A stretch of 64,000 nt of DNA from Terracidiphilus sp. (GTDB lineage Bacteria > Acidobacteriota > Terriglobia > Terriglobales > Acidobacteriaceae). Within the stretch, counting starts at the first letter, position 1. Every line of letters starts with the position of its first letter. The notes under the pieces are model-generated. The model saw nothing but the letters and a program-made list of their open reading frames with translations. It was not told the origin of the DNA and made no database searches. Below are positions 6,547 through 25,790 of this stretch, piece by piece. The DNA is taken from contig JBEKZJ010000030.1 of assembly GCA_049509995.1 (NCBI GenBank), forward strand, positions 12,088 through 76,087, written 5' to 3'. Position numbers and translations under genes: made by a program.

Positions 6547-6984
6547 CTAGTTTCCAGCGGCCGGAGAGACTTTGGCTTCCAGCGGCTGGGTAACGATGGA
6601 GATGCTGGTGATGCCGGCCTGCTTGACGGAGTCCATGACGGAGGCGAAGACGCCAAAGGGGACCTGTTCGTCGGCGCGGAGATAGATGATCTGGTGGGCC
6701 GGATCGGCGCCGTGCTGGTGGAGCTTCTGGGCCAGTTCGTGGATGTTGACGGGCTGGTCGCCGAGAAATACCTGTTGATTGCGATCGATGGTGAGGACCA
6801 GGCGCTGCTCGGTGATCTCCCTGACGGTGCGGGTTTTGGGCACGGAGACGTCGATGCCGGACTGCAGGACGGGCGCGGTGATCATGAAGATGACCAGCAG
6901 GACGAGGACCACGTCGACCAGGGGAGTGATGTTGATGTCCGCCAGGGAGGAACGGGTTTGTCCGGTGCTATTTGTAAAGGCCAC
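6547..6984 (-). CDS. tolR: Biopolymer transport protein TolR/ExbD
   Basis: 145 aa with a single TM segment (INITPLVDVVLVLLVIFMI) and a periplasmic ExbD-like domain. Overlaps tolQ by 17 nt. Confidence 0.85.
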   Translation of the reverse strand: MAFTNSTGQTRSSLADINITPLVDVVLVLLVIFMITAPVLQSGIDVSVPKTRTVREITEQRLVLTIDRNQQVFLGDQPVNIHELAQKLHQHGADPAHQIIYLRADEQVPFGVFASVMDSVKQAGITSISIVTQPLEAKVSPAAGN

Positions 6985-10843: not shown

Positions 10844-10917
10844 CCTCCGGCGTTATGGCCGAGCCTCATTGACCACTATACCCCGGGTTTTCTTTGCTGT
10901 CCCTTCGATGGGGCGAT

Positions 10918-10926
10918 TGGTATACT
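10918..10926 (+). promoter_or_regulatory. Extended -10 promoter element upstream of ispH
   Basis: TGGTATACT fits TGnTATAAT in 5 of 6 positions. It lies inside the long ORF-track version of ispH, which argues for a downstream start. Confidence 0.3.
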
Positions 10927-11001
10927 CAAAGAGTGACCCCTACTGTGCTCGATTCCATCTCGAACGGTATCCACGTTGAGACTTCCCCCAACCGAAAGAG
11001 G

Positions 11002-11961
11002 GTGTTGTTGCTGAAGCCGCGAGGCTTTTGCGCGGGCGTGGTGCGCGCGATCGACATTGTGAAGATCGCTTTGGAAACCTTTGGCGCGCCGATTTACGTG
11101 CGCCGGGAGATTGTGCATAACCGCTATGTTGTGAATGAATTGGCGGAAAAAGGAGCGATTTTTGTTCATGAAATCGACGATGTGCCGGACGGGCAGAGGG
11201 TGATCTATTCGGCGCACGGGGTTTCCCCGGCAGTGCGGGCGCTGAGCAAGGGGCGGCACCTGAGGGTGATCGACGCGACCTGCCCGCTGGTGACCAAGGT
11301 ACACATCGAAGCGGTGAAGTTTGCCAAACAGGGCTACTCGCTGGTGCTGATTGGGCACCGGGACCACGACGAGATCGAGGGCACGCTGGGCGAGGCGCCG
11401 GAGGTGACCCAGGTGGTTTCGAACGTGGCGGAGGTTGCGGAACTGAAGGTGCCCGACCCGAACCGCGTGGCGTATCTGACGCAGACCACACTGAGCCTGG
11501 ACGAGGCGCGGGACATCATTCATGCGCTGAAGGAGAAGTTTCCGAACATTGCCGGGCCGCATTCGCAGGACATCTGCTACGCGACGGAGAACCGGCAGGT
11601 GGCGGTGCGCAACGTGGCGCACGATGCGGGGCTGGTGCTGGTGGTGGGATCGACGAACAGCTCGAACTCCAATCGGCTGGTGGAGGTTTCGCGGAACCTG
11701 GGGACGATCGGTTATTTGATCGACAACTCGCAGGCCATCGACCCCAAATGGCTGGAGGGCGTGAGTACCGTTGCGGTGACGGCAGGGGCGTCGGCACCCG
11801 AGGTGCTGGTGGAAGACGTGGTCAATTACTTGCGACTAAACGGTTTTGATAGCGTCGAAGAGGTGGAAGTGATGCCGGAAAATGTGCGGTTCGGGCTGCC
11901 GCCGGAGATTGTGCAGGCGATTGGCAGCGCGGGCGGGGCCGGGGCTGTGGCCGTGCGGTGA
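11002..11961 (+). CDS. ispH: 4-hydroxy-3-methylbut-2-enyl diphosphate reductase IspH/LytB
   Basis: The three Cys motifs RGFCAGV, DATCPLVTKVH and ICYATENRQ are present. Start placed at GTG 11002, right after SD AAGAGG; TTG 11005 or 11008 are equally possible. The ORF-track start at 10894 would add 36 residues. Confidence 0.9.
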   Translation: MLLLKPRGFCAGVVRAIDIVKIALETFGAPIYVRREIVHNRYVVNELAEKGAIFVHEIDDVPDGQRVIYSAHGVSPAVRALSKGRHLRVIDATCPLVTKVHIEAVKFAKQGYSLVLIGHRDHDEIEGTLGEAPEVTQVVSNVAEVAELKVPDPNRVAYLTQTTLSLDEARDIIHALKEKFPNIAGPHSQDICYATENRQVAVRNVAHDAGLVLVVGSTNSSNSNRLVEVSRNLGTIGYLIDNSQAIDPKWLEGVSTVAVTAGASAPEVLVEDVVNYLRLNGFDSVEEVEVMPENVRFGLPPEIVQAIGSAGGAGAVAVR

Positions 11962-12055: not shown

Positions 12056-14122
12056 ATGAGCAATCAGCAGGGGAAGAAGCAATCCGCGACGGCCGGAGTG
12101 GCGGCAGTGAAGGCCGCGACACCCAAGGGTGCGGCGCCGCGATTCGGCAGGCTGGACGCGGCCCTGGCGGATGTGGAGTCGGCTATTGTGCGGTCGCGGG
12201 AGTTCCTTCTCTCGCAGCAGCATCCTGAGGGGTATTGGTGTGGGGAGCTGGAGGCGGACTCGATGCTGGAGGCCGACTACATCTTCCTGCACACGCTGCT
12301 GGAGAGCGGCGATCCGGGGCGGCTGAGGCGCGCGCTGACGGAGATGATGCGCTACCAGAACGAGGATGGGAGCTGGAGCATTTATCCGGGCGGGCCGGGG
12401 AATATCTCGCTTTCAGTGAAGTGTTATTCCTCAGCCAAGCTGATGGGGATTGGCGGGGACGATCCCAGGCTGGTGACGTGCCGCGAGTGGGTGCTGGCGC
12501 ACGGCGGCGTGGTGGCGACGAACACCTTTACGAAGATGTATCTGTGCGCGCTGGGCGAGTACGACTACGATGCGGTTCCGGCGATTCCGCCGGAGATTGT
12601 TCTGTTTCCCAACTGGTTTTACTTCAATATCTACGAGATTTCTTCGTGGTCGCGGTCGATTCTTGTGCCGCTGGCGATTATGTATGCCCGGAAGCCATTC
12701 AAGAAGATTGCGCCGGAACAGGGGATCGATGAGTTGTTTGTGGGCGGGCGGGCCAACGCTACGCTGCGGCTGCGGATGGACCGCAAGAAGCTGGTGTCGT
12801 GGCGCAATTTTTTTCTGATTCTGGACAGGATCATGCATTGGGCGGAGGCGGTTCACATCCGGCCGTTGCGCACGTTGGCGTTGCGCAAAGCGGAGAAGTG
12901 GATTTTGGCGCGCCTCGAGATGACGGACGGGCTGGGCGCCATCTATCCGGCGATGTTGAACGCAATCATTGCGCTGCGCTGCCTGGGCTACTCCGAGGAC
13001 GATCCGCAGGTGATTCGCGCGCGGGACGAGTTTGAGAAGCTGGGCATCGAGCAGCCGGCGACGGCAGATGTGCCGGAGCCGACGTTTCGCATGCAGCCCT
13101 GCGCCTCGCCGGTGTGGGACACGGCGCAGGCGGTGTACGTGCTGGGCGAGGCGGGGGTGAAGCGTGACGATCCGCGGATGATCAAGGCGGCGGACTGGCT
13201 GCTGGCCAAGGAGGTGCGGCACAGGGGCGACTGGGCGGTGAAGGCGCCGAACACCGAGCCGGGCGGCTGGTATTTCGAATTCAACAACGAGTTCTATCCC
13301 GACACGGACGACACAGCGCAGGTGCTGCTGGCGCTAACCAAAGTGGAGAATCCCCGCGAAGGCTACCAGCACAAGGTGGTGCAGCGGGCCATCGAGTGGG
13401 AGTTTGCCATGCAGTGCCGCAGCGGCGGCTGGGGCAGCTTCGACAAGAACAACACCAAGATGATCTTCCAGTACATTCCGTTTGCGGATCACAACGCGAT
13501 GCTGGATCCGCCGACGGTGGACATTACGGGAAGAATCCTGGAGACGCTGGCGACCTATGGATATAGCCGCGACGACAAGCGGGTGGAGAAGGCGATCAAG
13601 TTCATCCTGAGCGAGCAGGAGCCGGACGGAAGCTGGTTTGGTCGCTGGGGAGTGAACTATATTTACGGGACATTCCTGGTGCTGCGCGGATTGGAAGCTA
13701 TCGGCATCGACAACCATGAGCCGCAGATTCAGCAGGCGGCGGAGTGGATACGGATGGTACAGAATCCGGACGGCGGCTGGGGCGAGACGTGCGGGAGTTA
13801 CGACGATCCGAATACGCGCGGCGTGGGACCGAGCACGCCTTCGCAGACAGCCTGGGCGCTGCTGGGACTGCTGGCGGCAGGGGACGACCGGTCGGACTCG
13901 ATCGCCAAGGGAGTTCGCTGGCTGCTGACGCGGCAGCAGGCGGGCGGCAGCTGGGATGAGCGGACCGGAGCTGGAATCACACGGCAGGCGCTGTACACTG
14001 GAACAGGCTTCCCCAGGGTTTTTTACCTGTCTTACAACTTGTATCGCCAATACTTCCCGTTGATGGCTTTGACCGGCTACCTTCGGGCAATGGAACGCGC
14101 CTCACTCGGCGCTGGAGGTTAA
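12056..14122 (+). CDS. shc: Squalene-hopene cyclase
   Basis: 688 aa. DxDD catalytic motif (YPDTDDTAQV) and several QW repeats (QNEDGSW, QNPDGGWG, QQAGGSW). Confidence 0.95.
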   Translation: MSNQQGKKQSATAGVAAVKAATPKGAAPRFGRLDAALADVESAIVRSREFLLSQQHPEGYWCGELEADSMLEADYIFLHTLLESGDPGRLRRALTEMMRYQNEDGSWSIYPGGPGNISLSVKCYSSAKLMGIGGDDPRLVTCREWVLAHGGVVATNTFTKMYLCALGEYDYDAVPAIPPEIVLFPNWFYFNIYEISSWSRSILVPLAIMYARKPFKKIAPEQGIDELFVGGRANATLRLRMDRKKLVSWRNFFLILDRIMHWAEAVHIRPLRTLALRKAEKWILARLEMTDGLGAIYPAMLNAIIALRCLGYSEDDPQVIRARDEFEKLGIEQPATADVPEPTFRMQPCASPVWDTAQAVYVLGEAGVKRDDPRMIKAADWLLAKEVRHRGDWAVKAPNTEPGGWYFEFNNEFYPDTDDTAQVLLALTKVENPREGYQHKVVQRAIEWEFAMQCRSGGWGSFDKNNTKMIFQYIPFADHNAMLDPPTVDITGRILETLATYGYSRDDKRVEKAIKFILSEQEPDGSWFGRWGVNYIYGTFLVLRGLEAIGIDNHEPQIQQAAEWIRMVQNPDGGWGETCGSYDDPNTRGVGPSTPSQTAWALLGLLAAGDDRSDSIAKGVRWLLTRQQAGGSWDERTGAGITRQALYTGTGFPRVFYLSYNLYRQYFPLMALTGYLRAMERASLGAGG

Positions 14123-14129: not shown

Positions 14130-15248
14130 ATGGCTGTTCCTATCTCTCAGATGTGGACGGTTGCCACCTACGTGCTGAAGAAGAAGCTGGCCGGCAACAA
14201 GCGGTATCCGCTGGTGCTGATGCTGGAACCTCTCTTCCGCTGCAACCTGGCATGCGCCGGGTGCGGCAAGGTGCAGTATCCGCCACATATTTTAAGAAAA
14301 CAGCTTTCGCCGAAGGAGTGTTTTGCCGCTGTGGAAGAGTGCGGCGCGCCGATGGTGTCGCTGCCTGGCGGCGAGCCGCTGCTGCACCCGCAGATTGTGG
14401 AGATCGTCAGCGGGCTGGTGGCGCGGAAGAAGTACGTTTACCTGTGCACGAACGCTCTCGAGTTGAAGCGGCGGCTGCCGGAGTTTACGCCGTCAAAGTA
14501 CCTGACCTTTTCCGTTCACCTGGATGGGCAGCGCGAGCACCACGATTTCTCAGTTTGCCGCGAGGGCGGGTACGACATTGCGGTGGAGGGGATCAAGGAG
14601 GCGGTGAAGCGGGGGTTCCGGGTGACCACCAACGCGACCTTCTTCGACGGCACCGACCCGAACAGCGTCCGCGCTTTCTTTGACGAAGTGATGGACATGG
14701 GCGTGGAGGGGATCGTGCTTTCGCCCGGGTACAGCTACGACAAGGCGCCGGATCAGAATCGATTCATGGGACGGGCGCGGGTGCGGCGGCTGTTCCGCGC
14801 GATTTTGTCGAATCGCAAGCCGACGTGGAAGTTCAATATGTCTCCTTTGTTTCTTGAGTTTTTGATGGGCGACCGGAAGTATGAATGTACGCCGTGGGGA
14901 TCGCCGGCGTATAACATCTTCGGCTGGCAGAGACCGTGTTACCTGCTGCAGGATGGTTATACGGAGACTTACAAGGAGCTGATCGAGACCACTAAGTGGG
15001 AAGAGTACGGCGTGGCCAGCGGGAACCCGAAGTGCGCCAACTGCATGGTGAGTTGCGGTTATGAGCCAACGGCGGTGATTGAAGGGTTCACCTCGCTGAA
15101 GGGATTCTGGGGGATAGTGCGCGGGACGTTCAGCCTGTATCGCGATGAGCACGCGCTGAAGCTGCTGAATGAGGCGGCGCCGCATGGGCCTGTTTCTCTG
15201 GTGCAGATTGAGAAGCCTGCGCGCGTGCTCGAGGAGACCAACGCATGA
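14130..15248 (+). CDS. hpnH: Adenosyl-hopene transferase HpnH (radical SAM)
   Basis: Radical-SAM motif CNLACAGCGK near the N-terminus; length and context fit HpnH. Starts 7 nt after shc. Confidence 0.9.
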   Translation: MAVPISQMWTVATYVLKKKLAGNKRYPLVLMLEPLFRCNLACAGCGKVQYPPHILRKQLSPKECFAAVEECGAPMVSLPGGEPLLHPQIVEIVSGLVARKKYVYLCTNALELKRRLPEFTPSKYLTFSVHLDGQREHHDFSVCREGGYDIAVEGIKEAVKRGFRVTTNATFFDGTDPNSVRAFFDEVMDMGVEGIVLSPGYSYDKAPDQNRFMGRARVRRLFRAILSNRKPTWKFNMSPLFLEFLMGDRKYECTPWGSPAYNIFGWQRPCYLLQDGYTETYKELIETTKWEEYGVASGNPKCANCMVSCGYEPTAVIEGFTSLKGFWGIVRGTFSLYRDEHALKLLNEAAPHGPVSLVQIEKPARVLEETNA

Positions 15249-15670
15249 CGGCCGAAGTGCTGAAGTACACGCTGGAGCAGGTGGAGGCGCTGGAGCTGGC
15301 TCCGGGCGCGGAGCATGAACAGCTTGAAGGATGGGTGCCCGCGCTGGCCGACGAGGACGACTTGCGGCAGGCTCTGGAAAAGGCGTTCGACTATCGCGGG
15401 GACGTGACGCTGACGCTGAAGAGCGGGGAGCGGATCGAGGCCTTCATCTTCAATCGGCATACGGGAGCGACGCTGGCCGATTCCTATGTGCAGTACTTCA
15501 CGCCGAGCGCGCCGGAGAAGCGCAAGGTGAGTTACGCGGAGATTGCGCGGCTTGCGTTCGGCAAGGATCGGGCGGCGGGCAAGCACTGGGAAGATTGGGT
15601 GAAGAAGTACAACGAGCGCAAGGCGGCGGGCGAGCAGGGGATTGCGCTGCATCCGGAAGCGCTGGATTAG
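15245..15670 (+). CDS. Hypothetical soluble protein translationally coupled to hpnH
   Basis: 141 aa with no TM segment; acidic N-terminal half and basic C-terminus. ATGA overlap with the hpnH stop. Third positions are G/C-rich. Confidence 0.6.
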   Translation: MTAEVLKYTLEQVEALELAPGAEHEQLEGWVPALADEDDLRQALEKAFDYRGDVTLTLKSGERIEAFIFNRHTGATLADSYVQYFTPSAPEKRKVSYAEIARLAFGKDRAAGKHWEDWVKKYNERKAAGEQGIALHPEALD

Positions 15671-15809: not shown

Positions 15810-16799
15810 ATGAAAGTCTTCCTTACAGGCGCGACGGGATTTGTGGGGCACCATGTGGCGCGGGCGCTGGCGGCCGAGGGCGCGGAGCTGCGGCTGCTGG
15901 TGCGCAAGACCAGCAACCTGAAGAATCTGGAAGGCATTCGCGGCGAGACGCACGTCGGGGATTTGAGCGAGCCGGAATCGCTCAGGCCGGCGCTTGCGGG
16001 TTGCGACGCCGTAGTTCATGTGGCTGCGGACTACCGGCTGTGGATTCGCGATCCGAAGGCGATGTACCGCACGAATGTGGATGGGACGCGGGAGTTGCTG
16101 CGGTTAGCACGCGAGGCTGAGGTGCCACGGTTTGTGTATACCTCCAGCGTGGCGACGATGCACTTCAGGACCGATGGGCTGGTTATCAATGAGGACACGC
16201 CGGTTTCGCTCAAAGACATGGTGGGGCATTACAAGCGGTCGAAGTTTCTGGCCGAGCGGGAAGCGGTTGCCGCAGCGGAGGGTGGGCAGAAGGTCATCAT
16301 TCTGAATCCCACGACGCCGATCGGGCCGAACGATGCGAAGCCCACGCCGACGGGGCGGATCTTTGTGGACTTTTTGAACCGGAAGTTTCCGGCTTACATG
16401 GACACGGGGCTGAACCTGGTGGATGTGGCGGAGGTGGCGCGCACGCACGCGGCGGCGCTGACGGTGGGGACGCCGGGCAAGCGGTACATTCTGGGCGGGG
16501 AAAACCTGACTCTGAAGCAGATCCTGGACAAGATGTCGGCGATTACCGGGATTCCTTCGCCGACGGTGAAGATTCCGTTTGCGGTCGCGGCTACGTATGC
16601 GTTTTTCGAGGAGTGGATTACGGGGCGGATGCGAGGACGCGAGCCGAGAGCGACGCTCGAAGAGGTGCGGATGGGGCGGAAGAAGATGTACGCCTCGAGC
16701 GCCCACGCGCAGCAGGAACTGGGGTTCAGGATTATGCCGATTTATCCGGCGATGCGGGCAGCGATCGAATGGTTCCGGGCGCATGGGTACGCGCCTTGA
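15810..16799 (+). CDS. hpnA: Hopanoid-associated sugar epimerase/dehydratase-family protein HpnA
   Basis: NAD-binding GATGFVGHHV and catalytic YKRSK (YxxxK). N-terminus closely resembles the HpnA family. Confidence 0.85.
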   Translation: MKVFLTGATGFVGHHVARALAAEGAELRLLVRKTSNLKNLEGIRGETHVGDLSEPESLRPALAGCDAVVHVAADYRLWIRDPKAMYRTNVDGTRELLRLAREAEVPRFVYTSSVATMHFRTDGLVINEDTPVSLKDMVGHYKRSKFLAEREAVAAAEGGQKVIILNPTTPIGPNDAKPTPTGRIFVDFLNRKFPAYMDTGLNLVDVAEVARTHAAALTVGTPGKRYILGGENLTLKQILDKMSAITGIPSPTVKIPFAVAATYAFFEEWITGRMRGREPRATLEEVRMGRKKMYASSAHAQQELGFRIMPIYPAMRAAIEWFRAHGYAP

Positions 16800-17653
16800 C
16801 GCGCGTGGCGATCATTGCCGCCATGGCGGGGGAGTTGAAGCCGCTGGTGCGCGGGTGGCCGCATGAGCGGCGCAACGGCGTGGATGTGTGGCGCTGGAAA
16901 TCAGATGGGGGCGAGTGGGTGGCGGCCTGTGCAGGAGCCGGCGTGGATGCCGCGACGCGGGCCTTTGCGGAGATTGAGCGGGATGGGGCTTTCGATCAAG
17001 TGATTTCGATTGGCTGGGCGGGGGCTCTAGGCGAGGAGTTTAAGACCGGGAAGGCTTATTGGGTTGCGGGTGCGATCGATGCGCGGACCGGAGAGCGGTT
17101 TCGGACCCAAGCTTGGGAGGATGAGTCCGTTGACTCTCACCCCATTGACAAAAACAAAGACGTCGCGAGGGTAGGGCACCCAGATTTGTTCCAGTCGTTG
17201 GTGGGGCACCCAGATTTGTCCCAGTCGTTGGTGGGGCACCCAGACGATTGCTGGTTGGTGACGAGCGCGAGGGTTGCGGACAGACAGGAGAAACGGCGGC
17301 TGGCGGCGACTTATAGAGCTGGAATCGGGGTAGGGCTGGTGGACATGGAGGCGGCGGGGGTTGCGCGCCTGGCGCAGATGCGGGGTATTGCTTTTTATTG
17401 CATCAAGGGAGTGAGCGACGGGGTTCGGGACCAACTGCCTGATTTCAATCGGTTTATCTCGGCGAATGGGCGGTTCCAACTGGCCCGGTTTGTGCTTTTT
17501 GTTCTTCTTCGGCCGTGGTACTGGCTTGGATTGATGCGGATGGGTGAGAATAGCAGGAAGGCTGCCCAGGCAATGAGGGAGTCCCTGCTCGAAAATCTGG
17601 ATGGACGAGGAGCTATCACCCGGCGCAATGGCTACCCAAATCTCAAACGTTGA
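16769..17653 (+). CDS. hpnG: Hopanoid-associated phosphorylase/nucleosidase HpnG (with an extra internal insert)
   Basis: PNP/UDP-1 fold motifs (IIAAMAGELKPL, SIGWAGAL, VDMEAAGVA). Start uncertain: ATG 16769 overlaps hpnA, and GTG 16805 is also possible. Contains the 30-bp tandem repeat listed next. Confidence 0.8.
   Translation: MVPGAWVRALTRVAIIAAMAGELKPLVRGWPHERRNGVDVWRWKSDGGEWVAACAGAGVDAATRAFAEIERDGAFDQVISIGWAGALGEEFKTGKAYWVAGAIDARTGERFRTQAWEDESVDSHPIDKNKDVARVGHPDLFQSLVGHPDLSQSLVGHPDDCWLVTSARVADRQEKRRLAATYRAGIGVGLVDMEAAGVARLAQMRGIAFYCIKGVSDGVRDQLPDFNRFISANGRFQLARFVLFVLLRPWYWLGLMRMGENSRKAAQAMRESLLENLDGRGAITRRNGYPNLKR
17174..17245 (+). repeat. 30-bp tandem repeat (2.4 units) inside the hpnG coding frame
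   Basis: gggcacccagatttgt(t/c)ccagtcgttggtg occurs twice, followed by gggcacccagac. It encodes VGHPDLFQSL-VGHPDLSQSL-VGHPD. Confidence 0.9.
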
Positions 17654-17684
17654 AAGCCAGATCGACGGGAAGATTCCTGCCACC

Positions 17685-18758
17685 ATGCGGGCCGTGGTTT
17701 ACCGCGGCGTGAACGACATGCGCGTGGAGACGGTTCCGGTGCCGGCGATTGGGCCGGGCGAGTTGCTGGTCAAGGTGGCTACGTGCGGAATCTGCGGGAC
17801 GGATCTGAAGAAGATCCACACCGGTTCGCACTCGGCGCCGCGCATCTTCGGCCACGAGATGGCGGGAACCATCGTGAAAATGGGCGAGGGCGTAACGCGG
17901 TTCGAGATGGGCGAGCGGGTGGTGGTCCACCATCACGTTCCGTGCGGCGAGTGCTACTTCTGCCGCAAGCAGACGCCGGCGCAGTGTCCTCTTTACAAGA
18001 AGGTTGGGGTTACGGCGGGGTTCGAGCCCTCGGGCGGCGGCTTTGCGGAGTATATTCGAGTGCTGGACTGGATTGTGGACAGCCGGGGGGTGGTGCGGAT
18101 TCCGGACGGCGTGCCGTTTGAGCAGGCGGCGTTTGTGGAGCCGGTGAACACGGTACTGAAGGGCGTCAAGCTGTTGCATCTTGCCGCGGACGACACGGTT
18201 CTGGTGATTGGGCAGGGACCGATCGGGCTGATGCACGCGGCGCTCGCCCGGCGGGCCGGGGCGCGGGTGCTGACGTCCGATCTTTATCCGGAGCGTCACG
18301 CCATTGCCGCGAAATTCGGGCTCCGGGATCCGATCGATGCCGGCAGCGAGGATGTGGTGGGGAGGGTGTTTGAAGAGACTGGCGGGCGCGGGGCGGACGC
18401 GGCGATTCTGGCGGTGGGAGGCAATGCGCTGATCCAGACGGCGATGGACGCGGTGCGGCCGGGCGGGAAGGTGATGCTGTTTGCGCAGACGCAGCACGGG
18501 GAAGCGACCATCGACCCCGGCGCGGTGTGCATGGATGAGAAGACGCTGCTGGGCTCATACTCTGCGTCCTTCGAGATTCTGGACGAGGTGACCGATCTGG
18601 TGTTCGGCGGCTACCGGAGCGGATTCGATCTGACCCAACTGATCAGCCATCGCTTTAAGCTGGAAAAGGCGGTTGAGGCGATTGAGGTGGCTTCGCACCC
18701 CAAGGCGGACTCGATGAAGATTATGATTGAGCCTGTGCCTGGAGCCGGGGCAGAGTAG
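17685..18758 (+). CDS. Zn-dependent MDR-family alcohol/polyol dehydrogenase
   Basis: Catalytic Zn ligands CGICGTD and GHEMAG, structural Zn motif CGECYFCRKQTPAQC, Rossmann GQGPIG. Starts 31 nt after hpnG. Confidence 0.85.
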   Translation: MRAVVYRGVNDMRVETVPVPAIGPGELLVKVATCGICGTDLKKIHTGSHSAPRIFGHEMAGTIVKMGEGVTRFEMGERVVVHHHVPCGECYFCRKQTPAQCPLYKKVGVTAGFEPSGGGFAEYIRVLDWIVDSRGVVRIPDGVPFEQAAFVEPVNTVLKGVKLLHLAADDTVLVIGQGPIGLMHAALARRAGARVLTSDLYPERHAIAAKFGLRDPIDAGSEDVVGRVFEETGGRGADAAILAVGGNALIQTAMDAVRPGGKVMLFAQTQHGEATIDPGAVCMDEKTLLGSYSASFEILDEVTDLVFGGYRSGFDLTQLISHRFKLEKAVEAIEVASHPKADSMKIMIEPVPGAGAE

Positions 18759-18768
18759 GAGGGACTTG

Positions 18769-19812
18769 ATGGCGACAACCATGAAGGCCGCAATCCTCCA
18801 CGGACGCGAAGATATGCGTATCGAACGGGTGCCGGTGCCGGAGGCGGCGCCGGGCGAGTTGATCGTGCGCGTGGGCGCTGCGCTGACCTGCGGAACGGAC
18901 TTGAAGGTTTTCCGGCGCGGGTACCACGCGCGGATGATTGTGCCTCCGGCGCTGTTTGGCCATGAGTTGGCGGGGACGGTAGTGCAGGCGGGCGAGGGAG
19001 TGATCGATTTCGCTCCCGGCGACCGTGTGGTGGCGCTGAACTCGGCGCCGTGCGGGCAGTGTTATTTCTGCGGGCGAGGCCAGGAGAACCTTTGCGACGA
19101 CCTGCTGTTCAACAATGGGGCGTATGCGGAGTTCATCCGGATTCCGGCGCGGATCGTGGCCAAGAATACGCTGCATGTTCCGGACCATGTGCCGCTGGAG
19201 CACGCGGCGCTGACCGAGCCACTGGCCTGCGCGGTGCATGGGTTTGAGGACTCACGGCCACGGAGCGGGGATACGGTGGCGGTGATCGGCGGGGGCCCAT
19301 TGGGGCTGATGATTCTGCATGTGGCGGCGCTGGCCGGATGTGAAGCGATTGCGATTGTGAAGCATGACGGGCAGGTGGAAGCGGCGCGGCAACTGGGCGC
19401 GGCGCATGTGGTGCAGACGACGAGCATTCGCAGGGCCATCCGCGAGACGCGCGCGCTGACGCCGGTGAATCGGGGCGTGGATATTGCGATTGAAGCAGTT
19501 GGGGTTCCGGATGCGTGGCAAGAGGCGGTGGAACTGGTGCGCAAGGGCGGCACGGTGAACTTCTTCGGCGGCTGCGCCGTGGACACGCAGGTGACCCTGG
19601 ACACCAACCGCATACACTATAGCGACATCACGCTACGGGCCACGTTCCATCACACGCCGGCGATTTGCCGCAGGGCGCTGGAGCTGATTGCCGGGGGACG
19701 GTTCCAGGCGCAGGCGTTTATTACCGGTCACGCCCATTTGTACGAACTCAACCGCGTTTTTGAGAAGCTGATGAACCGGGGCAGCGAGATCAAGACCGCC
19801 ATTGTGCCCTGA
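18769..19812 (+). CDS. Zn-dependent MDR-family alcohol/polyol dehydrogenase (second copy)
   Basis: LTCGTD, GHELAG, CGQCYFCGRGQENLC and GGGPLG. SD AGGAGGG lies 5 nt before the ATG. It starts 10 nt after the previous gene and ends 9 nt before hpnC. Confidence 0.85.
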   Translation: MATTMKAAILHGREDMRIERVPVPEAAPGELIVRVGAALTCGTDLKVFRRGYHARMIVPPALFGHELAGTVVQAGEGVIDFAPGDRVVALNSAPCGQCYFCGRGQENLCDDLLFNNGAYAEFIRIPARIVAKNTLHVPDHVPLEHAALTEPLACAVHGFEDSRPRSGDTVAVIGGGPLGLMILHVAALAGCEAIAIVKHDGQVEAARQLGAAHVVQTTSIRRAIRETRALTPVNRGVDIAIEAVGVPDAWQEAVELVRKGGTVNFFGGCAVDTQVTLDTNRIHYSDITLRATFHHTPAICRRALELIAGGRFQAQAFITGHAHLYELNRVFEKLMNRGSEIKTAIVP

Positions 19813-19821: not shown

Positions 19822-20853
19822 ATGAGCGTGGCATCGGAGCAAACGGGCAAGGAAGCGGCGGCGCCGGAGACAGGAGCGCTGGATAGGGATGAGCTGCTTG
19901 CGCGCGGCTGGGCGGCGCTGCCGGAGAGCTATCGGATTCCCGAGGTTGCGCCGGCGCTGGACGAAGCGCGGGCTTATTGCCAACGGCTGGCGGAGACGCA
20001 CTACGAGAATTTTCACGTGGTCTCGTGGTTCCTGCCCAAAGCGCTGCGGCCGCATTTTCACGCGATCTATGCGTACTGCAGGATTTCAGACGATCTGGGC
20101 GACGAGGTGGGCGGGACGGCCGAGGCGCTGGCGCTCCTGGAGCTTTGGGGCGAAGAGCTGGATGCGTGCTACGCGGGCAAGGCGCGGCATCCGGTGTTTG
20201 TGGCGCTTAAGGAGACGATCCGCGAATGCTCGATTCCCAAGGAGCCGTTTGCGGACCTGCTGACAGCGTTCCGGCAGGACCAGACAGTTACACGGTACGC
20301 AACCATGGAGGACGTGCTGGCGTACTGCCGGTACTCGGCCAATCCGGTGGGGCGGCTGGTGCTTTATGCCTGCGGCGAGGCGCCGACTGAGGGATCTGAC
20401 GAGCGATTCCGGCTTTCCGACGCGACCTGTACGGCGCTGCAACTGGCCAATTTTTGGCAGGATGTGCGCGAGGACTACGCCATGGGACGGGTGTATTTGC
20501 CGCAGAAGGACATGCAGTTCTATCACGTGAGCGATGTGAACATCGGCGAAGGGATTGCGACGCCGGAGTTTCGCGCGCTGCTGCATTGCGAGGTGGAATA
20601 CGCGCGGGGGCTGTTTGAAGAGGGATTGCCGCTGATCGGGATGGTGAACCGGGATCTGGCGGTGGACCTGGAACTTTTCAGCCGCGGGGGTCTGGAGATT
20701 CTGCGGGCCATCGAGCAGCGAGACTACGACGTCCTGAGCGCGCGGCCAGCAATCTCGAAGATGACCAAGGCCGGGCTTGCGCTGCGGGCAGCGACGGCCA
20801 AGCTGCTGCCGTTTTTGAGACTCGGCGGGCGGCGCACAGAGCAGGCGGATTGA
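19822..20853 (+). CDS. hpnC: Squalene synthase-family protein HpnC (hydroxysqualene synthase)
   Basis: Trans-isoprenyl diphosphate synthase head-to-head fold (YENFHVVSWFLPKALRPHFHAIYAYCRISDDLGDE). First gene of an hpnCDE triplet. Confidence 0.85.
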   Translation: MSVASEQTGKEAAAPETGALDRDELLARGWAALPESYRIPEVAPALDEARAYCQRLAETHYENFHVVSWFLPKALRPHFHAIYAYCRISDDLGDEVGGTAEALALLELWGEELDACYAGKARHPVFVALKETIRECSIPKEPFADLLTAFRQDQTVTRYATMEDVLAYCRYSANPVGRLVLYACGEAPTEGSDERFRLSDATCTALQLANFWQDVREDYAMGRVYLPQKDMQFYHVSDVNIGEGIATPEFRALLHCEVEYARGLFEEGLPLIGMVNRDLAVDLELFSRGGLEILRAIEQRDYDVLSARPAISKMTKAGLALRAATAKLLPFLRLGGRRTEQAD

Positions 20854-21791
20854 GGCAGGAAGCTCCATTGAACGGGCGGAGGGAGGGAGGGCTCACGCTG
20901 GATGAGGCCTACGCGGCGTGCCGGGCGATTGCCAGGCGCGAGGCGAAGAACTTCTATTATGCGTTTGTGGCGCTGCCCGAGGCGCGGCGCAACGCGATCT
21001 GCGCCATCTATGCTTTCATGCGCCAGGCCGACGATTTGGCCGACGACGAAGGCTTTTCCCTCGAAGAACGGCGCTACCGCCTGGATGCGTGGCTCAAGGC
21101 ATGGCGCGGGGTTTGCGCGGACGGCCGGAGCGATGACCCGGTTTTTGTAGCGGTGCGCGATGCGACGGTGCGGTTTGCGATTCCATTGGGGCTGCTGGAT
21201 GAGCTGGTGGCCGGAGTGACGATGGACCTGAAGCAGGCTGCGACGGATGCGCCGGACACGTACGCGACGTTTGCCGAGTTATACCGTTATTGCTACCTGG
21301 TGGCTTCGGTGGTGGGGCTGGTTTGCATTCGCATCTTTGGTTACACAGACCGCAAGGCGGAGAAACTGGCGGAAGAGACGGGGATTGCTTTCCAGTTGAC
21401 GAACATTCTGCGCGACGTGGCCGAGGATGCGGAGCGAAATCGCGTGTATCTGCCCCTAGAAGATTTGAAAGCTCAAGGGGTTGCGCTGGATTCGCTGCTG
21501 CACCGGGCGCCCGGTGCGGCGCCGACGGCGAATGAGCGGGCGTTGCTCAAAGAAATTGGGCGGCGGGCTGAAACCTATTACCAATCGGCGCAGGCATTGA
21601 TGCCGCTGATCGACACGGAGAGCCGGCCGGCGCTGTGGGTGCTGGTGCGGATCTATCATGCGTTGCTGAAGCGGATTGAGCGGGCGGATTTCGATGTGTT
21701 TTCGCGGCGGGCGAGCGTGCCGATGATGGAGAAGCTGGGAATTCTGGCGGTGGGATTGGCGCGGATGGGGTGGGCGCGGTTGGTTGGGTGA
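20850..21791 (+). CDS. hpnD: Presqualene diphosphate synthase HpnD
   Basis: NFYYAFVALPEARRNAICAIYAFMRQADDLADD motif. 4-nt overlap with hpnC. Confidence 0.85.
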   Translation: MRQEAPLNGRREGGLTLDEAYAACRAIARREAKNFYYAFVALPEARRNAICAIYAFMRQADDLADDEGFSLEERRYRLDAWLKAWRGVCADGRSDDPVFVAVRDATVRFAIPLGLLDELVAGVTMDLKQAATDAPDTYATFAELYRYCYLVASVVGLVCIRIFGYTDRKAEKLAEETGIAFQLTNILRDVAEDAERNRVYLPLEDLKAQGVALDSLLHRAPGAAPTANERALLKEIGRRAETYYQSAQALMPLIDTESRPALWVLVRIYHALLKRIERADFDVFSRRASVPMMEKLGILAVGLARMGWARLVG

Positions 21792-23247
21792 TGGGGAGAC
21801 GTTGAGCGGTTTGGAGCAGACTTCGGGGAGAACCGTCACGGTGGTGGGCGGGGGCGTGGCGGGGATGAGCGCGGCTTGCGCCCTGGCCGAGGAGGGCCTG
21901 CGCGTGCAATTGGTGGAGCGGCGCGGGTATTTGGGCGGACGGGCGAGTTCGTATCTGCATCCGGGAGTAGACGAGGTCATCGATAACTGCCAGCATGTGC
22001 TGTTTGGCTGCTGCACGAACTTGCAGGGATTCTACCGGCGGATCGGGGTTGCGGACCAGATTCACTGGACCAGCGAGATGACGATGATCGAGCCGGGTGG
22101 AAGGCGTTCGCGGCTTGGTCCTTCGTGGCTGCCTGCGCCGCTGCACGGGCTGCCGAAGCTGATGGCAGCCAAGGCCTTCTCGTTTGCTGACAAGTTGGCG
22201 CTGGGGCGGGCGTTTGCGGCGCTGATGCGGCCAGTGCCGGGCAGCTCGACTGAAAGCCTGGGGGATTGGCTGCGGCGGCATAAGCAGACCGAGGGCGCGC
22301 TCAATCGCTTCTGGCGGCTGGTGATTGCGAGCGCGCTCAATGCGGACATCGATTCGATTGCGTTGCCGTATGCGGCGAAGGTGATCCGCGAGTTGTTCAT
22401 GAATTCGGCGTTCGCCGGCAGCATGGGGATGAGTACTGTGCCGCTGAGCGCGCTCTATGCGGGGGCGGCGAGTTTTTTGCGGGAACGCGGCTCGAGCATT
22501 CTGTTCAACACGAGTGTGGAGTCGGCGGGGTGGGATGAGGAGACTTCGCAATGGACAGTGGCTACACGAAGCGGCGCGCTGGCGGCGGAGTTTCTGGTGC
22601 TGGCGCTACCGTTTGAGGCTACGGCCAAGCTGCTGCCGCACATGCCGGCGACCGATGGGTCCGATGCGCTGGCCGCGCAGATTGAACGGCACGAGCATGG
22701 GCCGATTTGCAGCGTGCATCTGTGGTTCGACCGGGAGATTACGGAGTTGGAGCACGCGGTGCTGCTGGACCGGGAGATTCACTGGCTGTACAACAAGAGC
22801 CGGTTGCAACCATGGCGCAAGGACAAGGGGAGTTATGTGGAGCTGGTGGTGAGCGCTTCGCGCGGGTTTGCGCAACTGAGCCGCGAGGAGGCGATTGCGA
22901 AGGCGGTGGGGGAGCTGGGCGAGTTCTTTCCTCAGGTTGCGGCGGCCAGGTTGGAGAAAGCGGTGCTGGTGAAGGAGATGCGGGCTACGTTTGGCGTGTC
23001 GCCGGGGATCGATGCGTCGCGGCCTACGGCTGTCTCGCCGTGGCCGAATTGCTTTCTGGCCGGGGATTGGACGGCGACAGGGTGGCCTTCAACGATGGAG
23101 AGCGCGGCACGGTCGGGGCATCTGGCGGCGGAGGCTGTTTGCGCGAGCATCGGGGGGCCGCGAAGGATTCTGGATGCGGATTTGAGGCCGCGGGGGTTGA
23201 TGCGGTTGGTTGGGACCAGGGACCAGGGACTTAGGGACCAGGATTAG
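21784..23247 (+). CDS. hpnE: Hydroxysqualene dehydroxylase HpnE (FAD amine-oxidase fold)
   Basis: N-terminal FAD motif VTVVGGGVAGMSAACALAEEG. TTG start overlaps the hpnD stop. The C-terminal residues are encoded by GGGACCA heptamer repeats at 23212-23242. Confidence 0.85.
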   Translation: MGDGETLSGLEQTSGRTVTVVGGGVAGMSAACALAEEGLRVQLVERRGYLGGRASSYLHPGVDEVIDNCQHVLFGCCTNLQGFYRRIGVADQIHWTSEMTMIEPGGRRSRLGPSWLPAPLHGLPKLMAAKAFSFADKLALGRAFAALMRPVPGSSTESLGDWLRRHKQTEGALNRFWRLVIASALNADIDSIALPYAAKVIRELFMNSAFAGSMGMSTVPLSALYAGAASFLRERGSSILFNTSVESAGWDEETSQWTVATRSGALAAEFLVLALPFEATAKLLPHMPATDGSDALAAQIERHEHGPICSVHLWFDREITELEHAVLLDREIHWLYNKSRLQPWRKDKGSYVELVVSASRGFAQLSREEAIAKAVGELGEFFPQVAAARLEKAVLVKEMRATFGVSPGIDASRPTAVSPWPNCFLAGDWTATGWPSTMESAARSGHLAAEAVCASIGGPRRILDADLRPRGLMRLVGTRDQGLRDQD

Positions 23248-23639
23248 TGCGCGAGAAAGTAGACGCCGATGCAGACGAGGACGGCGGCGGACCAGCGGCG
23301 GCGGTCTACGTTTTCCTTGAGGAAGATTTTGCCGGCGATGGCGTTGGTGACCAGCGTGAGCGAGGCCGAGGCGGGGGCGACGAGCGAGAGGTTGAGGTGG
23401 TTGAGGGCGAAGAGCAGCGAGAAGAAGGCGAGGGCCAGGAAACTGACGCCGGCAAAGAAGAGCGGACAGGTGAGGACGGCGCGGATGGCGCCTTTCAGGC
23501 CTGAATGGGCGCGAATGTCGTCGAGGTCGCCGAAGGACTTCATGGCGGCGGCGGTGAGGACCTCGCCGGTGGTGGACAAGAGGACGATGGCGGCGATCAT
23601 GGCGGCGGCGGCCCAGGGATTCGGGTAGGGGAGGGTCAT
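23244..23639 (-). CDS. Half-size EamA/DMT-family membrane protein (4 TM)
   Basis: 131 aa with four hydrophobic helices. Its stop codon overlaps the convergent hpnE stop at 23244-23247. Confidence 0.65.
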   Translation of the reverse strand: MTLPYPNPWAAAAMIAAIVLLSTTGEVLTAAAMKSFGDLDDIRAHSGLKGAIRAVLTCPLFFAGVSFLALAFFSLLFALNHLNLSLVAPASASLTLVTNAIAGKIFLKENVDRRRWSAAVLVCIGVYFLAH

Positions 23640-24139
23640 CGCGGCTGGGCCTCTTCCCTGATGGCGCCGGAAACTGCGGGTTCCGGGACTTGGTCGAGCG
23701 GGCCTTCGATGGCGAGGCCACTGGCGACGAGCAGCTTATCGACGGGGCGTTCAGTGAGGGAAGGGCCCTGGGCGACGAAGCTGACGCCGAGGGTGATGAG
23801 GGCAATGCCGGTCCAGCGCTGGATCGAGATGGGCTCTTGGAGCCAGAAGCGGGAGAGCAGGGCGACGATGACGTTGCCGAAGGCGGTGGCGGGGAGAACA
23901 TAGGTGAGATCGGCCCAGGAGAGAGCGGTGAGATAGCTGGCAAAGAAACCGATGAGCAGGGCGATACCGAGGGCGATCCAGGGCGTGAAGACGGCGGCGA
24001 TGAGGGTGGCGGGATGGGCGAGGGAGATGGCCGGCAGGGTGGTCATGCCGCGCGAGAGGCAGGAATCGCCGAGGGGGGCGCAGATGGCGACCAGCAACAG
24101 GATCATGTATTGGCGCGGCGAGAGTCTTGGGTGAGGCAT
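23636..24139 (-). CDS. Half-size EamA/DMT-family membrane protein (4 TM + hydrophilic tail)
   Basis: About 167 aa from ATG 24139. The ORF-track start at 24289 would read through repeat element B. ATGA overlap with the downstream partner at 23636-23639. Confidence 0.6.
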   Translation of the reverse strand: MPHPRLSPRQYMILLLVAICAPLGDSCLSRGMTTLPAISLAHPATLIAAVFTPWIALGIALLIGFFASYLTALSWADLTYVLPATAFGNVIVALLSRFWLQEPISIQRWTGIALITLGVSFVAQGPSLTERPVDKLLVASGLAIEGPLDQVPEPAVSGAIREEAQPR

Positions 24140-24168
24140 TGGCTTCCTGGTCCTGATGAAGGGACGCC

Positions 24169-24239
24169 GGTTGAGGTTCGTGGTTTCCCACCCTTTCGCC
24201 AGTAAAAAGGCGAAAGGATGAGGCACGGAACTCTTGGGG
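24169..24239 (+). repeat. Intergenic repeat element B, copy 2
   Basis: ggttgaggttcgtggtttcccaccctttcgccagtaaaaaggcgaaaggatgaggcacggaactcttgggg. Near-identical to the copy at 3012-3082. Confidence 0.75.
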
Positions 24240-24299
24240 TCGGCCGACGGGGTTGAAAAGTGCAGCGCCGCCCCCGAACGAGCCTTCAACGAGCGGCGA

Positions 24300-25790
24300 T
24301 CAGGCGCCGGCGTTTACGGGGGCAGGCGGATCGGCCTGGTGGCTGCGGGCAACTTTGACCATCTTGTTGCGCTGCGCGCGGAGCTTGAGGAAGGCCTTGG
24401 ACTCGACGTAGAGCCGGGGCAGATCGCGATTCACGAAGGCCTTCCAGACCACGCGGAAAGCGGCCTTGGGGCGGAAGTAGTACTCGTCGTAGAAGCGGTG
24501 GACCATTTCGAGGACGTAGTCGGTGGGCAGGCCGGGATATTCGATGTGGGCCATCTGGTGGCCGCCTTCATCGCTCATCGCCGCTGAATTCACGATGAAA
24601 CCGTTGGCCTTGGCGTAGTCGTAAAACTCGGTGCCGGGGTAGGCGTGGGCGATGGAGACCTGGAGGGTTTCAACGTCCAGCGACTTGGCGAAGTTGATGG
24701 TGTTGCGGATCGATTCCTTGGTTTCTCCGGGCAGGCCGAGGATGAAGTCGCCGTGAACGGTGAGGCCCAGGTCGTGGCAATCCTTGGCGAACTGGCGGGC
24801 GCGCTCGACGGTGGCGCCCTTCTTGATGTTCTTGAGGATCTGGGGGTCGCCGGACTCAAAGCCGACGATGAGCAGGCGGCAGCCGGCCTCCTTCATGGCC
24901 TTGAGGGTGTCGTAGTCGGTGGTGACGCGCGAGGTGCAGCTCCAGGTGAGGTTGAGGGGCTTCAGCTTTTCGCATAACTCGATGGTGCGGACCTTCTGGA
25001 TGTTGAAGGTGTCGTCGTCGAAGAAGAACTCCTTGACCTCGGGGAAGTTTTCCTTCGCCCATTTCAGCTCGGCGGCGACGTCGTCGGTGGATCGCTTGCG
25101 CCAGGCGTGGCCGCTGAGGGTCTGGGGCCAGAGGCAGAAGGTACACTGCGCGGGGCAACCGCGGGTGGAGTAGAGCGCGATGAAGGGATGAAGCAGGAAG
25201 GGGACGTTATAGCGGGTAACGTCCATGTCGCGCTTGTAGATTTTGGTGGCCCAGGGCATGGCGTCGAGGTCTTCGACCTGGGGACGGTCGGGATTGTGGA
25301 GGATCTTGCCGTCGAGCCTGTAGCTGATGCCGAGGATCTCGTTGAGGGGCTTGCCCTGGGCAAACTCGACCACGGAGTAGTCGAACTCGCGGCGGCAGAT
25401 GAAGTCCAGGGCGGCGCACTCGTTGAGGGCGCGTTCCGGGTCGGTGGTGACCGGCGGGCCGACGAAGGCGATGCGGATGGAGGGGTTGGCGGCCTTGATG
25501 GCCACGGCCAGGTGCTGGTCGCTCTTCCAGCCGACGGTGGAGGTGAAGAGGACAAGGAACTCGTAGTCCTTGCAGATCTTGATGGTTTCCGCGGCGGAGA
25601 CGTGGTGCGGGGGCGCATCCAGCAGGCGCGAACCCTCCAGCAGGCCTGCCGGGTAGGCGAGCCAGACGGGGTACCAGTAGGATTCAATCTCGCGCGTTGC
25701 GGGCCAGCGCGAACTCGCGCCACCGTCAAAGTTCTCGAACGAGGGCGGATTCAGTAACAGCGTTTTCAGGGGCATAGGCATCTCTTTCAT
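24300..25790 (-). CDS. hpnJ: Hopanoid biosynthesis radical SAM protein HpnJ (B12-binding class)
   Basis: N-terminus LLLNPPSFENFDGGASSRW and cluster motif CPAQCTFC. The internal ATG at 25775 (MPLKTLLL) may be the true start. Confidence 0.85.
   Translation of the reverse strand: MKEMPMPLKTLLLNPPSFENFDGGASSRWPATREIESYWYPVWLAYPAGLLEGSRLLDAPPHHVSAAETIKICKDYEFLVLFTSTVGWKSDQHLAVAIKAANPSIRIAFVGPPVTTDPERALNECAALDFICRREFDYSVVEFAQGKPLNEILGISYRLDGKILHNPDRPQVEDLDAMPWATKIYKRDMDVTRYNVPFLLHPFIALYSTRGCPAQCTFCLWPQTLSGHAWRKRSTDDVAAELKWAKENFPEVKEFFFDDDTFNIQKVRTIELCEKLKPLNLTWSCTSRVTTDYDTLKAMKEAGCRLLIVGFESGDPQILKNIKKGATVERARQFAKDCHDLGLTVHGDFILGLPGETKESIRNTINFAKSLDVETLQVSIAHAYPGTEFYDYAKANGFIVNSAAMSDEGGHQMAHIEYPGLPTDYVLEMVHRFYDEYYFRPKAAFRVVWKAFVNRDLPRLYVESKAFLKLRAQRNKMVKVARSHQADPPAPVNAGA

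Follow-up and report, generated by a model that had tools for sequence, protein, structure and literature searches.

The hopanoid biosynthesis operon on a 64,000-nucleotide stretch of Terracidiphilus sp. DNA (contig JBEKZJ010000030.1; "the window" below means this whole stretch) contains two adjacent genes for zinc-dependent medium-chain dehydrogenases/reductases (MDRs), MDR1 and MDR2, between hpnG and hpnC. Across related loci, these genes constitute an old, fixed and ordered two-gene module, often translationally coupled, and it is the pair that is the unit under selection. The two enzymes carry opposite cofactor signatures. They are tentatively read here as a hopanoid-linked redox pair whose favored substrate in Acidobacteriota would be the C35 ribosyl/polyol side chain that HpnH and HpnG produce, a reading to which a probability of roughly 35% is given. 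The two genes are as follows.

17628-18758 or 17685-18758, + strand: MDR1 ("ug1"), zinc-dependent MDR dehydrogenase of the subunit-1 class, with ADH_N and ADH_zinc_N domains
18769-19812, + strand: MDR2 ("ug2"), zinc-dependent MDR dehydrogenase of the subunit-2 class, 347 aa, with ADH_N and ADH_zinc_N domains

Translation and Pfam matches bear out the description of both open reading frames (ORFs) given in the first-pass annotation, which was made from the sequence: they are intact on the + strand and encode complete zinc-MDR motif sets. These motifs are CGICGTD, GHEMAG, CGECYFCRKQTPAQC and GQGPIG in MDR1, and LTCGTD, GHELAG, CGQCYFCGRGQENLC and GGGPLG in MDR2. Membership of the MDR superfamily is clear from matches above the gathering scores to both ADH_N (PF08240; 95.6 bits for MDR1, 85.4 for MDR2) and ADH_zinc_N (PF00107; 74.5 and 79.4 bits, respectively). 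The catalytic zinc is ligated by C37, H57, E58 and E152 in MDR1 and by C41, H65, E66 and E150 in MDR2, and the structural zinc by C87, C90, C93 and C101 in MDR1 and by C95, C98, C101 and C109 in MDR2. Both catalytic motifs named earlier are thus present, with one correction: the ligand within CGICGTD is the second cysteine, C37, which aligns with the single cysteine of MDR2 and of threonine dehydrogenase (TDH). Orthologue alignments of 158 MDR1 and 132 MDR2 sequences, taken from the fetched loci, show all four catalytic and all four structural ligands to be invariant, and so neither copy is decaying; the possibility that one of them is a dead paralogue was rejected on this ground. The two proteins are paralogues of each other (34% identity, E = 3e-53).

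The end of the second Rossmann strand is the classical discriminator between NAD and NADP in MDR enzymes. MDR1 has Asp199 at this position, a residue that is invariant in the 158 orthologues and lies opposite the Glu/Asp of NAD-dependent TDH, xylitol dehydrogenase and TADH, and opposite the Ala of the NADP-dependent ketose reductase 1e3j. In MDR2 the corresponding residues are V197-K198-H199, which vary between V/G, K/R and H/R across the 132 orthologues. V197-K198 aligns with the A-R of the NADP(H)-dependent enzyme 1e3j, and K198 stands opposite the Glu of NAD-dependent TDH. From the residues at this discriminator, MDR1 is predicted to prefer NAD(H) and MDR2 NADP(H). Each class also has marks of its own: MDR2 carries the invariant motif FHHTP, and MDR1 a conserved class-specific loop, YKKVGVTAGFEPSGGGFAEY, that is absent from TDH and from MDR2. 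The class consensus of this loop is GTTAGFEPxGGG, and class 2 is further marked by ALTCGTD...HARMIxPP.

Neither protein reaches the curated cut-off of a characterized enzyme family. Against the two NCBIfam TDH models, MDR1 scores 166.9 bits (cut-off 458.35) and 170.7 bits (cut-off 380), and MDR2 165.4 and 163.1 bits, respectively. The scores are likewise low for the scyllo-inosose 3-dehydrogenase IolM (NF041097; 172.9 and 153.6 bits for MDR1 and MDR2, cut-off 450) and for the NADPH-dependent aldehyde reductase Ahr (NF047908; 67.7 and 82.0 bits, cut-off 470), the latter a proxy for aldehyde-reducing MDRs. With values this far below the cut-offs, true orthology to TDH, sorbitol dehydrogenase, IolM or Ahr was rejected; no iol genes were found in the 64-kb window. 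The nearest solved structures (E 1e-35 to 1e-44) are Pyrococcus TDH, xylitol dehydrogenase, whitefly ketose reductase, Thermus TADH and the Sinorhizobium protein 4ej6. An AlphaFold2 model of MDR1 (pLDDT 79.8, pTM 0.83), in which the class-specific loop is modeled at low confidence, retrieved only generic MDR neighbors in Foldseek, with TM-scores of 0.78-0.85 and no substrate class singled out. By these comparisons, both proteins are placed in the threonine/polyol/secondary-alcohol branch of the zinc-MDR family and are orthologous to no characterized enzyme.

The pairing of the two genes is their most regular feature. It was followed over 164 loci, a sample biased towards Acidobacteriaceae, whose flanks are readable to 8-10 kb; the presence or absence of a neighbor refers to those flanks. 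In 137 of 138 loci, MDR2 is the next gene after MDR1, in many lineages with a 4-nt overlap of start and stop codons. An alignment of eight pairs gave 36-59% identity within each class and 23-36% between the classes, which places the MDR1/MDR2 duplication before the divergence of all these lineages. The NADP-type signature of class 2 recurs in Acidobacteriota, in a clade whose pair lies behind proline dehydrogenase, in Armatimonadota and in a marine lineage.

Within the family, conservation is strong. The MDR1 protein search and a scan of a genome collection returned only relatives of at least 81% identity, all of them Acidobacteriaceae, which serve for synteny within the family and not for breadth. 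The closest genomes are Terracidiphilus and Acidobacteriaceae metagenome-assembled genomes, among which L001 has an MDR1 96% identical and an MDR2 100% identical to those of the window. Among 80 species-level genomes, whose MDR1 is 81-96% identical, essentially all loci on contigs that reach far enough retain the order hpnG-MDR1-MDR2-hpnC. Median identity to the window protein among close relatives is 84% for MDR1 and 89% for MDR2; the values for the other cluster genes are given in the list below. The pair is as conserved as shc and hpnH, and more so than hpnC, hpnD, hpnE and hpnG. Both genes are real, intact and strongly conserved, and the hopanoid cluster of this lineage includes them, which supports their earlier description as part of it.

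That cluster covers 10.9-25.8 kb of the window, with the operon ispH-shc-hpnH-hpnA-hpnG-MDR1-MDR2-hpnC-hpnD-hpnE on the + strand. Its other genes are as follows, with median identities among close relatives at the end of the line.

10894-11961, + strand: ispH, start of the hopanoid cluster, from translation; 91%
12056-14122, + strand: shc, from translation; 85%
14130-15248, + strand: hpnH, TIGR03470, 535 bits, above the curated NCBIfam cut-off; 87%
15245-15670, + strand: small ORF "ug3", 141 aa, conserved, with no Pfam or NCBIfam match
15810-16799, + strand: hpnA, short-chain dehydrogenase/reductase (SDR) named "hopanoid-associated sugar epimerase", TIGR03466, 464 bits, above cut-off; 86%
16796-17653 (start uncertain), + strand: hpnG, hopanoid-associated nucleoside phosphorylase, best match TIGR03468, 75 bits, Pfam PNP_UDP_1; 53% in 78 close relatives, the lowest value in the cluster by a wide margin
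19822-20853, + strand: hpnC, hydroxysqualene synthase, TIGR03464, 340 bits, above cut-off, 9 nt after MDR2; 74%
20850-21791, + strand: hpnD, presqualene diphosphate synthase, best match TIGR03465, 242 bits; 74%
21784-23247, + strand: hpnE, hydroxysqualene dehydroxylase, TIGR03467, 436 bits, above cut-off; 73%
23244-24289, - strand: EamA-type ORFs, with EamA Pfam matches
24300-25790, - strand: hpnJ, B12-binding radical SAM enzyme, convergent with the operon, TIGR03471, 749 bits, above cut-off; 89%

HpnD (242 bits against a cut-off of 279) and HpnG (75 against 187) score below their NCBIfam cut-offs, and their names thus rest on best match and position, which for HpnD is between hpnC and hpnE. 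The gaps of 31, 10 and 9 nt that had been reported from hpnG to MDR1, between the MDR genes and from MDR2 to hpnC hold for the start codons then chosen. The first of them is probably a 26-nt overlap, with MDR1 starting at ATG 17628 ahead of the hpnG stop (17653). This start is preferred because an N-terminal extension, MATQxSNxES...IPATM, is in frame, free of stops and conserved in relatives, and because gene calls of 376 aa predominate there; translation gives 376 aa from ATG 17628 and 357 aa from ATG 17685. A strong AGGAGG ribosome-binding site precedes MDR2. Scans between hpnG and hpnC yielded no promoter-like site or convincing terminator, with counts at the level of shuffled sequence, which fits the earlier placement of the pair inside a single hopanoid transcription unit.

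Several of these neighbors have features of their own. A 30-bp tandem repeat in hpnG (17170-17244; 2.5 copies, 95% match) encodes VGHPDL(F/S)QSL repeats in an insertion of HpnG. The small ORF ug3 overlaps the hpnH stop by 4 nt, and 53 close relatives retain it behind hpnH at a median identity of 80%; in more distant loci it is 53-57% identical. Wherever hpnJ occurs it is accompanied by EamA-type transporter ORFs, here two (23244-23639 and 23636-24289) that overlap by 4 nt and contain one EamA domain each. The window has hpnJ although hpnI, hpnK, hpnN and hpnO were found nowhere in its 64 kb, and the function of HpnJ in this organism may differ from the formation of cyclitol ethers.

Breadth was sought in a collection of 1.84 billion cluster representatives. 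It contained one tight core cluster, followed by no more than about ten full-length clusters of 42-50% identity and then by a generic MDR continuum. Eighty metagenome loci were found with distant representatives (a five-sequence alignment), and a neighbor-joining tree was built. It separates five deep hopanoid-linked clades: a, subdivision 1 (SD1) including the window; b, L094; c, loci in which hpnC and hpnD are fused; d, L120, L143 and L160; and e, L092, L095 and relatives. All five are probably acidobacterial, the taxon of clade e resting on one named SucC match (81% identity, "Acidobacteriota bacterium"), and MDR1 identity falls to about 48% across them. Same-strand clustering with shc and hpn genes was found in the 80 species genomes and in the four further deep clades, three of which share the order hpnA-hpnG-MDR1-MDR2-hpnC with those genomes. 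Clades a, c and d have the order hpnA-hpnG-MDR1-MDR2-hpnC(D), with HpnG named from its best NCBIfam match, below cut-off. Clade e is more compact, ispH-hpnA-MDR1-MDR2-hpnD-shc followed by asd-lysC-dapB-dapA (L095, L161, L162 and L163). It has a single SQS_PSY gene, which in L095 scores as HpnD (286 bits, cut-off 279). The most constant upstream neighbor of the pair within Acidobacteriota is hpnA, present in all five clades, including the one that lacks hpnG.

Downstream, the next gene after the pair is hpnC or hpnD in 116 of 124 loci. Of 136 loci, 111 have hpnG directly upstream of MDR1, 8 have hpnA, 2 have proline dehydrogenase (with 4 more showing it within 2 kb) and 15 have some other gene. 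Where acidobacterial clusters are split, the pair remains with hpnC, hpnD and hpnE (L136, L144 and L152). A single locus, L127 (JAABUK010000006.1), has an MDR1 (72% identical) after hpnA-hpnG with neither MDR2 nor hpnC-hpnD-hpnE in the next 10 kb. In Armatimonadota (P0138; L165, GCA_028871815.1, and L166, GCA_028871005.1), the order is threonine aldolase-MDR1'-MDR2'-89-aa ORF-hpnC-hpnD-hpnE-trpA, and the clustering with hpn genes extends to hpnC, hpnD and hpnE only. HpnC and HpnE of this phylum exceed the NCBIfam cut-offs, and HpnD is a best match below it (237 against 279). The threonine aldolase is of the GntG/LtaE family (394 bits), and an FA_hydroxylase gene lies upstream on the other strand. 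Another lineage (P0129, L167) has MDR1'-MDR2'-hpnC-hpnD with 4-nt overlaps. Since Armatimonadota and this lineage keep the pair before hpnC-hpnD(-hpnE) only, the most constant isoprenoid neighbor across phyla is hpnC/hpnD, not hpnG.

Some other relatives stand apart from isoprenoid genes. In a sister clade of very high GC (P0124, L081-L091), the arrangement is proline dehydrogenase-MDR1'-MDR2' (e.g., L084, 8919-12106), sometimes with a response-regulator/GAF/HD-GYP gene inserted on the opposite strand. A cyanobacterial relative has a single MDR. In L173 (841-2649; P0157, 38% identical), a nucleotidyltransferase is fused to an MDR1-like dehydrogenase and adjoins a CDP-alcohol phosphatidyltransferase, an arrangement reminiscent of polyol-phosphate activation of the TarI/TarJ type for a lipid head group. 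The pair is older than its hopanoid link. Adjacency to hpnG, on which the first-pass annotation had built its proposal, fails as a conserved feature, being absent from clade e, Armatimonadota and the proline-dehydrogenase and stand-alone contexts. To the question whether orthologues lie mainly outside hopanoid clusters, close orthologues answer no and those at 40-50% identity answer yes. The link is neither general nor exclusive: alphaproteobacterial clusters and, for ug2, C. thermophilum lack the gene, and pairs also occur in non-isoprenoid contexts.

The clustering itself is not new. Sinninghe Damsté et al. (2017; Front Microbiol 8:968, PMC5462960), in the passages available to us, divide the genes of SD1 Acidobacteria into cluster A (ug2-hpnC-hpnD-hpnE), cluster B (isoprenoid gene-shc-hpnH-ug3) and cluster C (hpnA-hpnG-ug1), which are concatenated in Terracidiphilus gabretensis in exactly the order of the window. 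MDR1 and MDR2 are the same genes in the same places as ug1 and ug2 of that study, and L127 is an example of its split between cluster C (ug1) and cluster A (ug2). The same passages describe ug2 as a zinc-binding alcohol dehydrogenase of about 350 aa found in all SD1 and SD3 Acidobacteria, note that ug1 stays with hpnA-hpnG in SD3 although other genes are scattered, report that SD1 strains without hpnC and hpnE retain ug2, and identify fused hpnCD as a hallmark of SD2. They give ug1 and ug2 no function and propose hpnA for the step from ribosylhopane to bacteriohopanetetrol (BHT). They do not report that ug1 is an MDR dehydrogenase, the paralogy of ug1 and ug2, a fixed pair, NAD/NADP signatures, or the pair outside Acidobacteria or outside hopanoid clusters. 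Literature searches for other reports of zinc dehydrogenases within hopanoid or HpnCDE clusters, and for the genes that underlie BHT stereoisomers, found nothing beyond this study. What was already known is thus the hpn clustering in Acidobacteria; what is new is the paralogous fixed pair with opposite cofactor signatures, the extension of the hpnC/hpnD association to Armatimonadota, a hopanoid cluster variant without hpnG and hpnH, and the non-isoprenoid sister contexts.

The literature agrees with the earlier statement that no gene is assigned to the step from ribosylhopane to BHT, which has been open for more than 10 years. An August 2026 review describes it as "predicted to be nonenzymatic" (PMC13459092), and a cell-free system has been reported to reduce ribosylhopane to BHT (Bodlenner, 2015, from its title as cited). 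Alphaproteobacterial hpn clusters hold no extra candidate gene, yet 27 of 46 strains make BHT. The cell-free reduction is said to depend on NADPH.

The C35 side chain is the only polyol of the hopanoid pathway. It is favored as substrate for this reason and because the relatives of the pair are polyol-type and MDR1 stays with hpnA-hpnG in SD3; the closest characterized relatives are threonine, xylitol, sorbitol and secondary-alcohol dehydrogenases. MDR1 and MDR2 would cooperate, either sequentially or within a hetero-oligomer, and their target would be a secondary-alcohol or lactol carbon in a hydroxylated pathway intermediate. The NAD-type MDR1 would oxidize a hydroxyl to a carbonyl and the NADP-type MDR2 would reduce a carbonyl, and the net outcome may be redox isomerization of the side chain, stereoinversion or a polyol-pathway-like conversion, rather than a single aldehyde reduction. 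A more specific version, in which the pair supplies the missing enzymology after HpnG in Acidobacteriota, appears rather unlikely in itself. In that case MDR2 would convert ribosylhopane to BHT and MDR1 would re-oxidize a hydroxyl of the side chain, or both would act jointly in inversion or isomerization at a side-chain carbon such as C-34 to yield BHT stereoisomers or keto-bacteriohopanepolyols.

Several observations weigh against the side chain as substrate, which is itself deduced from synteny and enzyme family. Clade e has no hpnG, hpnH, hpnC or hpnE within 10 kb of the pair, even on a 6.9-Mb contig (ENA ERZ21831019), and the pair in Armatimonadota has no shc, hpnA, hpnG or hpnH within 8 kb. 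No hpn gene lies in up to 10 kb around the proline-dehydrogenase pairs (P0124, L081-L091), and the pairs of the marine lineage (P0146 and P0140) have no isoprenoid genes nearby. With such contexts, lacking hpnG and hpnH or hopanoid genes altogether, one side-chain substrate cannot explain every occurrence of the pair. The NADP-type signature of class 2 is lost in the distant lineages L167 and L170, and the hopanoid clusters of many producers are without such genes.

The proposal of the first-pass annotation, that one or both of these polyol/sugar-type MDRs reduce the open-chain ribosylhopane aldehyde to BHT at least in Acidobacteriota (MDR2 being the best fit with its NADP-type signature), is partly borne out: the step has no assigned gene, its reduction in a cell-free system is on record from the cited title (Bodlenner, 2015), the pair follows hpnG in 111 of 136 loci and its conservation equals that of hpnH. 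It is nevertheless improbable as a full account. Two enzymes are kept where one would suffice, MDR1 is of the NAD type, and some copies of the pair have neither hpnG nor hpnH in the vicinity or lie away from hopanoid clusters altogether. Low Ahr scores (68 and 82 bits against 470) and nearest relatives that act on secondary alcohols and ketones fit an aldehyde reductase poorly. There are also BHT producers without the pair, namely those with alphaproteobacterial clusters and C. thermophilum, which lacks ug2 (PMC5462960), and hence the pair cannot be the universal ribosylhopane reductase. Ribosylhopane reduction is better regarded as a special case of the redox-pair reading, a minority candidate for which MDR2 would be the better suited of the two; the evidence from comparative genomics is mixed and neither proves nor clearly favors the pair as BHT-forming enzymes. 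The second proposal made earlier, tailoring of the head group in connection with the cyclitol chemistry of hpnJ, was rejected, since the 64-kb window has no hpnI or hpnK and many loci keep the pair without hpnJ.

The constancy of hpnC/hpnD suggests a different substrate. As an accessory of HpnC, HpnD and HpnE, the pair would act on hydroxysqualene or on a side product of presqualene diphosphate, by stereoinversion or salvage of off-pathway alcohols, and its place after hpnG would be secondary. The 116 of 124 loci with hpnC or hpnD next in line, the same arrangement in Armatimonadota and L167, and the split clusters L136, L144 and L152 all agree with this. Hydroxysqualene is the only alcohol of the HpnCDE route, and we know of no role for an NAD(P) dehydrogenase in it. 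Polyol- and threonine-type relatives suit a C30 hydrocarbon alcohol poorly, most organisms with HpnCDE lack the pair, and clade e has hpnD only. HpnE is described as FADH2-dependent in a second-hand citation. The formation of squalene from farnesyl diphosphate is described as needing HpnC, HpnD and HpnE alone (Pan, 2015, cited in PMC5462960), and SD1 strains keep ug2 without hpnC or hpnE (PMC5462960). Such a function is quite unlikely. Somewhat less doubtful, if still not probable, is a generic NAD/NADP two-step system for a small soluble metabolite (a polyol, sugar or beta-hydroxy amino acid) that is merely co-located or co-regulated with the hopanoid genes, for example in a stress response. 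The same two classes occur after proline dehydrogenase, after the threonine aldolase of Armatimonadota or alone, the best family matches are TDH and scyllo-inosose dehydrogenase, and the nucleotidyltransferase fusion of P0157 resembles polyol-phosphate activation. Chance co-location does not explain tight or overlapping same-strand placement in the operon across five deep clades, placement before hpnC in a second phylum, or evolution in step with shc and hpnH. A redox pair acting on the hopanoid side chain is retained as the favored, if tentative, reading for Acidobacteriota.

Bacteriohopanepolyols are major bacterial membrane lipids and the source of geochemical hopane biomarkers. Stereoisomers of BHT serve as biomarkers, and their genetic origin is sought. 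Acidobacteria dominate soil and peat, and the conserved oxidoreductase pair of their hopanoid operon gives the search for these functions a reasonable starting point. If the pair does act after HpnG, it would provide the first genes for BHT formation or side-chain stereochemistry and would define a widespread two-subunit, NAD/NADP-coupled MDR redox module. The locus makes the old ribosylhopane-to-BHT question testable with concrete genes, and the computational evidence for a specific assignment is mixed. A single missing reductase after hpnG is probably too simple a reading, and the association of the pair with hpnC/hpnD is at least as close as that with hpnG.

The remainder of the window contains other recognizable systems. 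A Tol-Pal cluster lies at 1966-7771 and ispG at 34213-35463. At 38427-43114 on the + strand are genes for HoxE-like, HoxF/NuoF-GltD fusion-like and HoxU-like proteins, the diaphorase part of a bidirectional hydrogenase-like complex. The GC skew of the + strand is positive, strong and sustained over 1-52000 (0.07-0.29 per 2-kb window), and falls to about 0 at two places, around 52 kb and where the stretch ends.

Among known systems, TDH (TIGR00692/NF003808; Pyrococcus horikoshii 2dfv and 2d8a) shares with MDR1 and MDR2 the fold, the catalytic ligand set Cys/His/Glu/Glu and the four cysteines of the structural zinc site. Sequence comparisons with NCBIfam and the PDB rank it among the best matches of both proteins, and the Foldseek TM-score is about 0.8. 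However, identity is only about 30%, MDR1 has the extra conserved loop GVTAGFEPSGGG that is not found in TDH, and no gene for 2-amino-3-ketobutyrate ligase was seen near the pair. Polyol dehydrogenases, including sorbitol dehydrogenase/ketose reductase (1e3j), xylitol dehydrogenase (7y9p) and L-iditol 2-dehydrogenase, belong to the same MDR subgroup. They oxidize the CHOH adjoining the terminal CH2OH of a polyol, a type of group present in the BHT side chain, and 1e3j and MDR2 have in common an Ala/Val-Arg/Lys determinant for NADP. The resemblance is limited, with E values of only 1e-28 to 1e-38 and about 25-30% identity to the pair; L-iditol 2-dehydrogenase is the Joint Genome Institute name of the MDR proteins, an automatic orthology label (K00008) and not a tested function. 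The putative zinc-binding dehydrogenase of Sinorhizobium meliloti (4ej6/4ejm) ranks first among the solved structures that match MDR2 (E = 1e-43) and also heads the Foldseek matches for the MDR1 model (TM 0.82-0.85). It gives no functional lead, because it is itself without known function.

Another comparison is found within the operon. HpnA (TIGR03466) is, like the MDR pair, an NAD(P)-dependent oxidoreductase without assigned function, and is reportedly not essential for BHT in Burkholderia (Schmerk, 2015, cited in Sinninghe Damsté et al., 2017, PMC5462960). Unlike the pair, it belongs to the SDR superfamily and is widespread in hopanoid producers of other phyla.

Two-enzyme NAD+/NADPH relays are known from the polyol pathway (aldose reductase and sorbitol dehydrogenase), fungal pentose catabolism and the stereoinversion of alcohols by Candida parapsilosis. 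Their reductases, unlike MDR2, are mostly aldo-keto reductases or SDRs, and the likeness is an analogy of mechanism for which no common ancestry is claimed. In these relays, an NADPH-dependent reductase and an NAD+-dependent dehydrogenase act in turn on one carbon skeleton, isomerizing or epimerizing it, and the logic is like that proposed for MDR1 and MDR2.

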